Assembly: GCA_049516755.1 (NCBI GenBank)
Contig: JBEKSU010000015.1
Location: 490 to 24,489 of the forward strand
From: Verrucomicrobiota bacterium
GTDB lineage: Bacteria > Verrucomicrobiota > Verrucomicrobiia > Limisphaerales > UBA11358
Reading direction: 5' to 3'
DNA: 24,000 nt
The translations under genes were made by a program, and so were the position numbers. The notes beneath the pieces are model-generated. The model was not told where the DNA came from. It did not search any database and worked only from the letters and a program-made list of their open reading frames with translations. The first letter of the stretch is position 1. Each line of letters opens with the position of its first letter. Below, piece after piece: positions 5,492 through 8,452 of the stretch.

Positions 5492-8452
5492 ATGGCTTTT
5501 TCCGAAACACAGAACGAAATTTCCAAGCCCGTCGAAAACGTGCCGCAACCCGACCGGTTTGTCTGCCGCCATATCGGCCCGCGTCCCGCCGATGCCGTCG
5601 AAATGCTCAAGCAGCTCGGCTACGCGAGCCTTGATGCGATGATTGACGCCGCCGTTCCAAAACCGATTCGATTCGCCCGTCCGCTGCAACTGCCCGCTGC
5701 GCGCAACGAACATGAGGCCCTCGTCGCGCTGAAGGATATCGCGTCGCAAAACCAGGTCTGCCGCTCGTTCATTGGCATGGGCTACTACGATTGCATCACC
5801 CCGGCGGTGATCCAGCGCAACGTTCTGGAAAATCCCGGCTGGTACACGCAATACACACCCTACCAGGCTGAAATATCCCAGGGCCGCCTTGAAGCGCTCC
5901 TGAATTTCCAGACGATGGTCGCCGACCTCACCGCGCTCGACATCGCGAACGCCTCGCTCCTCGACGAAGCCACCGCCTGCGCCGAGGCGATGACGATGTG
6001 CCACCGGCTCACGGATGGACGCAACATTTTCTTCGTCTCCGAAACCTGCCATCCACAAAACATTGAAGTCGTCCAAACCCGGGCGAAAGCGCTTGGTATT
6101 GAAATCGTCGTCGGCAGTCACGAAAAATTTTCGTTCACCGAAAAAGTCTTCGGCGCGCTCGTGCAATATCCGGACACGTTCGGCGCGATTCGCGATTATG
6201 CTGATTTCGCGGAAAGGGCTCACGCCGCCGGCGCGCTGCTCACCGCGGCCACGGATTTGCTCGCGCTCACGCTCATCAAACCGCCCGGTGAATTCGGCGC
6301 GGACATCGCCGTCGGCAGCGCGCAACGCTTCGGTGTGCCGCTGGGTTACGGCGGCCCGCATGCCGCATTCTTTGCCACGCGCGACGAATTCAAACGCCAG
6401 ATGCCCGGCCGCCTCGTCGGCGTCTCCAAGGATTCCCGGGGCAAACCCGCGTTGCGCCTGGCGCTGGGCACGCGCGAACAGCACATCCGCCGCGAGAAGG
6501 CCACCAGCAACATCTGCACCGCGCAGGCATTGCTCGCGAACATGGCGTCCATGTATGCCGTCTATCACGGTCCGGATGGTTTGAAGAAGATCGCGCAGCG
6601 GGTTCATGCACTGACCGGAATTCTCGCCGCTGGTTTGGAAAAGCTGGGCTTTAACGTAGCGCAGCCGTCCCGGCTGCACGGGCAAAGGGGAAATAAAAGT
6701 TCCAACGAGCAGGCGGGACGCCTGCGCTACTTTTTCGACACGATCACGATTGCCCTCGGCGACCAGCGCGCCGCCGACATTGTCAAAATTGCCGAGGCGC
6801 ATCGGATGAATTTCCGGTTGATTGACGACCATACACTTGGCATTTCGCTCGACGAAGCGACCGGCGAAAGCGATGTGGTTGAAATCTGGCAGGTTTTCAA
6901 GGGCAACAAGGCCATCGGTTTCACGCTGGACGAACTCACCGGCAATCGGCAATCGGCAATCGGCAATCGGCAATCCAGTTTTCTTACGCACCCGGTATTC
7001 AATTCCTACCATTCCGAAACGGAGATGCTCCGCTACCTCAAACGGCTGGAATTGCGCGATCTGTCGCTGACCGCCTCGATGATTCCGCTCGGTTCCTGCA
7101 CGATGAAGCTAAACGCCGCGGCGGAGATGCTGCCGATTTCCTGGCCGGAATTTGCCCGGCTTCATCCTTTTGCGCCGTTGAAGCAGGCGCGTGGCTACCA
7201 GGTCTTGTTTCAAAACCTAGAGGATTGGCTTGCGGAAATTACCGGTTTTGCCGGAATTTCCCTGCAGCCCAACGCCGGTTCCCAGGGTGAATACGCTGGC
7301 CAGCTCGTCATCCGTGCTTATCACGAAAGCCGGGGCGATACGCACCGCAACATCTGCCTCATCCCGACCTCCGCGCACGGCACGAACCCCGCCAGCGCCG
7401 TCATGGCCGGGCTGAAAGTCGTTGCCGTTGCCTGCGACCGGGATGGCAACATCGACGTGGCCGATTTGCGGGCGAAGGCCGAAGCGCACAAAAAGGATCT
7501 GGCGTGTCTGATGGTCACCTATCCGTCCACGCACGGCGTGTTCGAGGAAACGATCAAGGAGATTTGCGAAATCATCCATGCCAACGGCGGACAGGTTTAC
7601 ATGGACGGCGCGAATATGAACGCCCAGGTCGGTCTGTGCCGTCCGGCGGACATCGGTGCGGACGTGTGCCATTTGAACCTGCACAAGACTTTCGCCATTC
7701 CACACGGCGGCGGCGGGCCGGGCGTCGGGCCGATTGGGGTGGCGAAACATCTGGTCAAATTTCTGCCGAGCCATCCGGTTTTCACGTCGCGGCTCGAAGA
7801 AAAGAATTCAAAACAACACATCGGCCCGGTGGCGGCCGCGCCGTGGGGCAGCGCGGGTATTTTGCCGATTTCGTGGATGTATATTGCCATGATGGGCGTG
7901 GACGGCCTGACCGAAGCCACCAAGTTTGCGATTCTGAACGCCAACTACATCGCCAAAAGGCTGGAGAATTATTTCCCGACGCTTTACCGCGGTCATGGCA
8001 AACTGGTCGCGCATGAGTGCATCCTCGATTTGCGCGCGTTCAAGAGCGTCACCGCCGAGGACGTGGCCAAGCGGCTGATGGATTACGGCTTTCACGCGCC
8101 GACGCTGTCATGGCCGGTCGCCGGCACGTTGATGGTCGAGCCGACGGAGAGCGAATCGAAACTCGAACTCGACCGTTTTTGCGACGCGATGATCGCCATC
8201 CACGCCGAGATGACGGCGATTGAATCCGGCGCGGCGGACCGGCAGAACAACCTGCTGAAAAATGCGCCGCACACGGCGGACGTGGTGGCGGCGGACAATT
8301 GGGACCGGCCTTACCCGCGCGAATCGGCGGCGTTCCCTGTCAAATCGCTGCGCGACTACAAATTCTGGCCGGCGGTCGGGCGCGTGGACAATGTCTATGG
8401 CGACCGCAACCCGGTTTGCTCCTGCGCGGGGATGGACACTTACGTTTCTTGA
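5492..8452 (+). CDS. gcvP: Glycine dehydrogenase (decarboxylating), single-chain P-protein of the glycine cleavage system
   Basis: 986 aa. N-terminal [22 protein letters not shown], and the PLP-lysine context [19 protein letters not shown]. It carries two repeat-derived insertions, listed separately. Confidence 0.96.
6656..6730. repeat. 75-nt palindromic (hairpin) element inside gcvP, exactly 25 codons in phase 0
   Basis: Arm 6656..6677 (GTAGCGCAGCCGTCCCGGCTGC) is the reverse complement of arm 6709..6730 (GCAGGCGGGACGCCTGCGCTAC) at 20 of 22 positions. The loop is 31 nt and A-rich. It encodes [25 protein letters not shown], at a position where, from my recollection of the E. coli GcvP sequence (not checked by alignment), only a short linker lies before YFDT. 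Confidence 0.8.
6941..6975 (+). repeat. Heptanucleotide microsatellite (GGCAATC)x5 inside gcvP
   Basis: Five perfect tandem 7-mers counted base by base. They are translated as [12 protein letters not shown] in the inter-domain linker just before the conserved [18 protein letters not shown]. Confidence 0.95.

Follow-up and report, generated by a model that had tools for sequence, protein, structure and literature searches.

GTAG-tagged repetitive extragenic palindromes (REPs) were defined by Di Nocera, De Gregorio and Rocco (2013; BMC Genomics 14:522, PMC3733652), who also described REPs and REP dimers located inside genes, where they encode 20-30 aa, and counted these intragenic units as REPs. 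Intragenic REPs were biased to replication and repair genes and to tRNA synthetases, and their number was highest in the verrucomicrobium Opitutus terrae, whose name occurs 70 times in the supplementary intragenic-REP table. Another type of intragenic palindrome is represented by the Rickettsia palindromic elements (RPEs; Ogata et al. 2000, as reviewed in PMC10969869). Here we analyze a palindrome situated within gcvP, the gene encoding glycine dehydrogenase, in a stretch of 24,000 nucleotides (the window, to which positions refer unless a contig is named). The window lies on contig C15 of genome G000, a 3.48-Mb metagenome-assembled genome (MAG) of the Limisphaerales (Verrucomicrobiota), which comprises 328 contigs, has 57.6% G+C and is about 90% complete. 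The palindrome is very probably an inverted doublet of GTAG-tagged REPs, similar to a REPIN (REP doublet forming a hairpin), which belongs to a family associated with a REP-associated tyrosine transposase (RAYT) and is carried as an in-frame passenger in a permissive turn of GcvP.

Judged by its sequence, the family concerned (called family A below) is a new one, of a kind already published, namely intragenic GTAG REPs. Like the REPs of Di Nocera et al., family A has a GTAG head and a short hairpin, forms dimers with outward heads and variable spacers, produces inserts of 20-30 aa in similar host genes, and is accompanied by a RAYT-like gene flanked by the same REPs. It is unlike them in REP sequence (the family-A peptides VAQASRL and SAGVPPA are absent from their table), in host order, here the Limisphaerales, and in that about two thirds of the family is intragenic. 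The gene gcvP is not among the O. terrae hosts in the searched parts of that table. With the REPIN-RAYT systems family A shares inverted REP doublets forming a long hairpin, restriction of the family to its genome, and the presence of a single RAYT gene for each family, with REPs of that family on either side. However, classical REPINs are extragenic and have a conserved spacer, whereas family A has unrelated spacers and most of its copies in genes; also unlike the classical case, its RAYT, on contig C31, is distant (62.9 bits against 80) and situated in frame inside a helicase gene. With RPEs the common feature is that of selfish palindromes inserted without loss of frame into numerous housekeeping genes that are unrelated to each other, the additional peptide being tolerated. 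Unlike family A, RPE-1 measures about 100-150 bp, has a conserved peptide and no known dedicated transposase. The link to RPEs is an analogy, the gcvP element being set apart by its anatomy (22-nt GTAG REP arms) and its host, and not by a comparison with RPE sequences.

The gcvP element and its repeat family

The two inverted arms, GTAGCGCAGCCGTCCCGGCTGC (6656-6677, + strand) and GTAGCGCAGGCGTCCCGCCTGC (6709-6730, - strand), agree at 20/22 positions, and none of 100 shuffled sequences gave a match of this kind. With the intervening 31-nt A-rich loop they form a palindrome of 75 nt, which corresponds exactly to codons 389-413 of the 986-aa GcvP open reading frame (ORF; 5492-8452). An earlier sequence-only reading of the window had described these two arms, their loop and the 25 in-frame codons, and was accurate on each of these points. 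The arms lengthen to 28 nt (6653-6680 / 6706-6733), and because the AAN outside the GTAG belongs to the repeat unit we redefine the element as 6653-6733 (81 nt, 27 codons), conserved outer AAN included. The features of the locus are the following:

5492..8452, + strand: gcvP, glycine dehydrogenase (decarboxylating), single-chain P-protein, 986 aa; ORF, host gene
6653..6733, no strand: whole REP doublet with outer AAN / NTT, 81 nt, codons 388-414; from the 28-nt inverted arms, the flank logo and the single-stranded DNA (ssDNA) fold
6656..6677, + strand: 5' REP unit, variant A2, peptide VAQPSRL; GTAG head, C, 7-bp stem, TCC loop
6678..6708, no strand: 31-nt spacer, purine/A-rich, about 11 codons, sequence unique to the gcvP copy; from the spacer comparison of 44 doublets
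6709..6730, - strand: 3' REP unit, inverted, peptide QAGRLRY on the + strand; family consensus, 0 mismatches
6731..6735, + strand: T5 run directly after the hairpin, host-encoded F-F codons of the conserved FFDT motif; from the consensus scan

The 81-mer 6653-6733 folds as ssDNA with -27.7 kcal/mol (z = -6.3), and the region 6646-6740 folds as RNA with -44.6 kcal/mol (z = -4.6); the hairpin within a single arm reaches -8.3 kcal/mol as ssDNA. In the 5' REP unit the stem GCAGCCG/CGGCTGC occupies 6661-6667 / 6671-6677 around the loop TCC (6668-6670), and the changes that distinguish this unit from the family consensus, G10C and C18G, are compensatory and preserve the small hairpin. On the + strand, the 3' REP hairpin, GCTAC and T5 (6709-6735) together have a terminator-like shape within the body of gcvP; the conserved FF codons supply the T run. 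A scan of Rfam returned only sub-threshold matches to generic-hairpin microRNA precursors (about 23 bits against gathering scores of 89-106), which rules out an intron or a known RNA family. An intein is ruled out as well, the insert being too small and devoid of intein domains.

Arms of family A are dispersed over the genome. With at most 2 mismatches we counted 84 copies on many contigs, compared to 0 for a reversed-pattern control, and almost all of them are arranged as inverted pairs spaced by 5-101 nt. Inverted pairs amount to 57 genome-wide: 44 of family A (GTAG..., consensus AAN-GTAGCGCAGGCGTCCCGCCTGC) and 13 of a sister family B (GGAGCGCCGGCGTCCCGCCGGC). The flank logo of the 44 family-A doublets has A at -3 in 78/88 arms and at -2 in 64/88. 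When arms are aligned, conservation is 90% or more in columns 1, 3 and 4, and column 2 distinguishes the two families (T in A, G in B); apart from the GGAG head of B, the main difference between them is one compensated stem pair.

The family-A arm consists of GTAG-C, a 7-bp stem GCAGGCG/CGCCTGC and a TCC loop. Over 57 distinct arm sequences, 95% of the stem cells are paired. Double-sided changes, found at 4/7 stem pairs, concern 44 cells where 13 are expected, and the observed covariation was reached by 0/500 shuffles. A consensus A arm is joined to a compensated A2 arm (GCAGCCG/CGGCTGC) in 19/44 doublets, the gcvP copy included, so that each small hairpin is perfect and the long hairpin carries 2 mismatches. 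This A + A2 pairing, together with the covariation of the stem, indicates that the selected unit is the single REP hairpin with its GTAG head.

The gcvP element therefore has the attributes by which GTAG-tagged REPs are recognized, i.e. the GTAG head, a hairpin under selection and many dispersed copies, as well as the two inverted REPs forming a hairpin that are typical of a REPIN. Two usual attributes are missing in the family. The extragenic location of REPs does not apply, since 30/44 family-A doublets are inside long ORFs; and the 44 spacers compared, of 5-101 nt, have no common sequence, as opposed to REPINs copied as one unit with a common spacer. The sequence-only reading had proposed a selfish palindromic element, with an arm drawn from a dispersed-repeat family and a behavior similar to that of RPEs. 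The dispersed family was recovered (84 arms, almost all in inverted pairs), the selfish nature is supported, and the likeness to RPEs holds as an analogy, with 30 of the 44 doublets in frame in genes; the exact kind, which that reading left unnamed, is a GTAG-tagged REP doublet with a candidate RAYT-type transposase, and not an RPE.

The intragenic placement of family A was compared to that of random positions. Frames open for at least 90 aa on either side surround 30/44 family-A doublets, against a baseline of 51.8% for 3000 random 70-nt windows (p = 0.03). None of the family-B doublets lies in a long open frame (0/13, p = 8e-5 against the baseline), and the two families differ clearly in intragenic rate (Fisher p = 8e-6). 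A further family, C (GTGCTGCCGGCATCCTGCCGGCAG), has 49 arms, and 12/18 of its doublets lie within long frames. Translations examined by eye identified, among the family-A hosts, the genes for IleRS, ValRS, ProRS, LysRS, PheS, PheT, AlaRS (twice) and DnaE, together with MutS, UvrA, NuoG, PurM, IspG, MetH, GlnE and UbiD. Pfam searches on ten hosts confirmed IleRS, ValRS, ProRS, DnaE, MutS, UvrA, PurM, IspG, MetH and a DinG-like helicase, and in these ten, single Pfam domains mostly run through the inserts. Only two REP reading frames are used in family-A inserts, VAQASRL and xSAGVPPA; the remaining one is closed because the TAG of GTAG falls in that frame.

Some local arrangements are more complex. 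Three family-A doublets (C54:11945, 13319 and 15231) have identical flanks and so are part of a larger repeated segment, not independent insertions. Three arms each are present at C39:10859-10943 and C92:2225-2369, which correspond to nested or grouped REPs.

Candidate transposase and RAYTs nested in genes

By homology with related systems, the REP hairpin with its 5' GTAG would be, as ssDNA, what a RAYT-type HUH/Y1 transposase recognizes and cleaves, and the candidate transposase for family A is a RAYT-like ORF on contig C31. The search of the genome for Pfam Y1_Tnp (PF01797) gave six matches, one of which is at C31:11258-11473 (23.7 bits for a cut-off of 23). The corresponding ORF, C31:10928-11542, is bracketed by family-A doublets at 10832-10925 and 11543-11627, which is the organization of a REPtron, where REPs of one family adjoin the Y1 HUH transposase gene on both sides. 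Among NCBIfam models the ORF is best matched by REP_Tyr_transpos (NF047646; E = 3e-17, 62.9 bits), and its sequence contains both the HUH motif HVHVL and a YxxxNP motif (YICENP). Different repeats surround the other RAYT/IS200-like Y1 genes of G000, and no RAYT was detected beside any of the 13 family-B doublets in this 90%-complete MAG. A structure is available for the E. coli TnpA-REP (PDB 4ER8). The putative link between family A and the C31 RAYT rests on gene arrangement, and its activity would be similar to that of the E. coli and Pseudomonas REP-RAYT systems, reportedly characterized by Nunvar 2010, Ton-Hoang 2012, Messing 2012 and Bertels & Rainey 2011.

The family-A RAYT and both of its doublets are included in a single open frame of 961 aa (C31:9407-12289, + strand), that of a DinG/XPD-type helicase identified by a Walker A motif, TSATL, and Helicase_C_2 after the insert. 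The frame is composed successively of the N-part (1-475), a doublet, the RAYT (508-712), a doublet and Helicase_C_2. An in-frame ATG is present within the spacer of the upstream doublet, and separate initiation of the RAYT is therefore possible. In G017, a genome of the same genus, the RAYT (L118) is likewise inside the helicase gene; the two RAYTs are 62% identical, the flanking REPs are different, and the helicase flanks are nearly identical by eye.

Comparable arrangements occur in other genes. A second RAYT of G000, 50% identical to the C31 RAYT, is in frame in PriA (C149:4330-7368, - strand), just before the Walker A motif (FLLHGVTGSGKTEIY), and has family-C REPs on both sides (AACGTGCTGCCGGCATCCTGCCGGCAG, about 25 copies). 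In a genome of the same order, a RAYT and its REPs (L120, G020:C74) are in frame in DnaE at the HHH_6 site; at this site the DnaE of G000 has a REP doublet only (C24:15995-16048). In G030, a RAYT (L119) is in frame in a large sugar-kinase/nucleotidyltransferase-like ORF.

The gcvP site in related genomes

The gcvP locus was located in related MAGs of the Verrucomicrobiota/Limisphaerales, which come from bogs and peat. Most GcvPs in an alignment of 32 sequences, including those of close Verrucomicrobia and of cyanobacteria, have 4-6 residues between ...LG-x-x-V and FDT. An ancestral GcvP loop is ruled out, as the insert is missing from most orthologues and from the Synechocystis P-protein (PDB 4LGL); the sequence-only reading had correctly taken the segment for an insertion. 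Expansion of a tandem repeat, which is observed at the gcvP site of L046, is not seen in the query and is ruled out there.

REP doublets are present at the same gcvP codon in five of these relatives. L037, from an independent MAG, has a doublet of the same type as the query, and so has L043 (type A, with a short spacer); the doublet is of the GTAGGACAGGCG... type in L038 and of the GTGCTGCCGGC... type in L039 and L041. In the GcvP tree, a single clade with 100/100 support unites the query with L037, L038, L039, L041 and L040, the last of which is empty. L043 is located in another well-supported clade, amid empty sites. Since L043 stands outside the query clade and among empty relatives, the gcvP site was filled at least twice. 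The same tree places the GcvPs of L044, L052 and L056, titled 'uncultured Bifidobacteriaceae', well inside the Verrucomicrobia; these are probably mislabelled bins.

The REP type found at the gcvP site is the dominant REP family of each genome, in the four genomes tabulated:

G031 (L037): family A, 75 arms; family C, 2 arms
G035 (L043): family A, 104 arms; family C, 0 arms
G033 (L039): family A, 8 arms; family C, 66 arms
G034 (L041): family A, 29 arms; family C, 84 arms

The copies of the query and L037 were compared position by position. By-eye counts gave 3/44 differences in the arms (93% identical) and 7/31 in the spacer (77% identical), and 139/466 fourfold degenerate sites differ (70% identical). 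The arms are significantly more conserved than the fourfold sites (Fisher p = 6e-4), and the spacer is not different from them. At the level of sequence, the arms are thus apparently kept or homogenized as DNA, and the spacer drifts like synonymous sites.

The same comparison was extended to three other hosts, IleRS, DnaE and MutS, in G031-G035 (L129-L142), the DnaE of G035 not being recovered and the IleRS of G032 being cut by a contig end inside the insert. In every related genome with the site recovered, the insert occupies one shared site, and the REP sequences of these shared-site inserts differ between genomes. This suggests that insertion sites may persist as slots across species while their REP occupants swap.

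A second hot spot of insertion in gcvP is visible near query residue 480, where the query itself is empty. L037 and L038 have there an insert of ~50 aa, GLQPGVKTNDD...TGLQPGANESG, which resembles another palindromic repeat, and L039 and L041 an insert of ~30 aa (SGDFPVASSKKSGQECPENRQTGMSAL).

Probable tolerance by the host protein and competing explanations

Over its whole length the query GcvP can be aligned with the Synechocystis P-protein 4LGL (E = 0), and none of the residues invariant among 23 orthologues, H731-K732-T733 included, is lost; tblastn detected gcvP as a single copy in the assembly. The insert keeps the reading frame, contains no stop codon, and replaces a short turn of 4LGL (...NYSLN-N-DYFFDT...), the equivalent stretch there being a turn of 2-4 residues. 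Its site is the short turn leading to the FFDT strand from a strand and the end of a long helix. In a low-confidence AlphaFold2 (AF2) model, the segment has no structure and is situated between two strands. The insert would be translated into some 20 additional residues, a hydrophilic and disordered loop tolerated by the enzyme. The gcvP copy would then be a passenger under selective filtering, the surviving copies being only those which are stop-free, in frame and situated in permissive loops of needed genes.

Several points weigh against reading the element as a passenger REPIN-like doublet of a RAYT-associated family. Unrelated spacers do not suit a classical REPIN copied as one unit. The score of the C31 RAYT is below the NCBIfam equivalog cut-off of 80, phmmer matched the RAYT segment to PDB sequences at chance level only (Fc receptors, E about 0.4), and no transposition event was directly observed. 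The argument for translation of the insert is built on an open frame and on the single-copy state of gcvP. The AF2 model, obtained from 23 sequences, is poor (mean predicted local distance difference test, pLDDT, of 61.8) and is used for a local statement about the insert only: residues 392-415, located between strands 388-390 and 418-421, are devoid of secondary structure and have pLDDT <50.

A different history of the site deserves consideration, although we regard it as doubtful: an older REP doublet at the gcvP codon was overwritten in place to the active family, by gene conversion or by REP-targeted insertion and replacement, with no fresh insertion into an empty site. It would account for the fact that 5/6 members of the gcvP clade are occupied at the same codon by three REP types (A, A* and C), which match the dominant family of the genome, for the different REP sequences at the shared sites of IleRS, DnaE and MutS, and for arms far more conserved than the spacer. 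However, L040 is empty although it lies inside the clade, no conversion tract or intermediate was seen, and the type-A doublet of L043 amid empty relatives of another clade means that fresh insertion also occurs, or that the site is the only permissive one. An extension of this idea, which we put forward tentatively, is that the occupants of long-lived slots, gcvP codon 389 included, may be rewritten to the active RAYT/REP family, and that the RAYTs, found in frame in proteins associated with the replication fork (the DinG-like helicase, PriA and the DnaE of a relative), may be made as fusion domains and so delivered to ssDNA at the fork. Slot rewriting, if true, would imply RAYT-driven, REP-targeted replacement or gene conversion.

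The conservation of the arms beyond that of synonymous sites, and the strong hairpin with T5 directly after it, could also be taken as signs that the host makes use of the element, as a ribosome-pausing mRNA hairpin, an RNase- or terminator-like control point, or a functional protein loop. We consider this improbable: in dozens of other, unrelated genes, and also between genes, the arms show the same degree of conservation, which points to a cause at the level of the family and not specific to gcvP, the close relatives L040 and L042 have no insert, and the spacer and encoded peptide drift freely. That the segment is just an ordinary lineage-specific GcvP loop, or an assembly or binning artefact, with an incidental palindrome, is hardly credible. 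The only thing in its favor is the variability of this GcvP loop region, to be set against 84 near-identical arms in the genome, a hairpin backed by covariation, and the same insert at the same codon in the independently assembled MAGs L037 and L043.

As regards annotation, the 25 residues of GcvP are a repeat-derived loop and not a feature of GcvP, and about 42 genes of G000 carry REP-derived loops (30 with family A and 12 with family C). G000 is a clean example of REP-type elements without the usual exclusion from coding sequence: family A is found in genes no less often than random positions are, whereas family B never is. This contrast between A and B offers a natural system for understanding what makes a REP family tolerable in genes and how REPs track their transposase, a use which is supported by the persistence of slots across species and by the RAYTs embedded in helicase genes.

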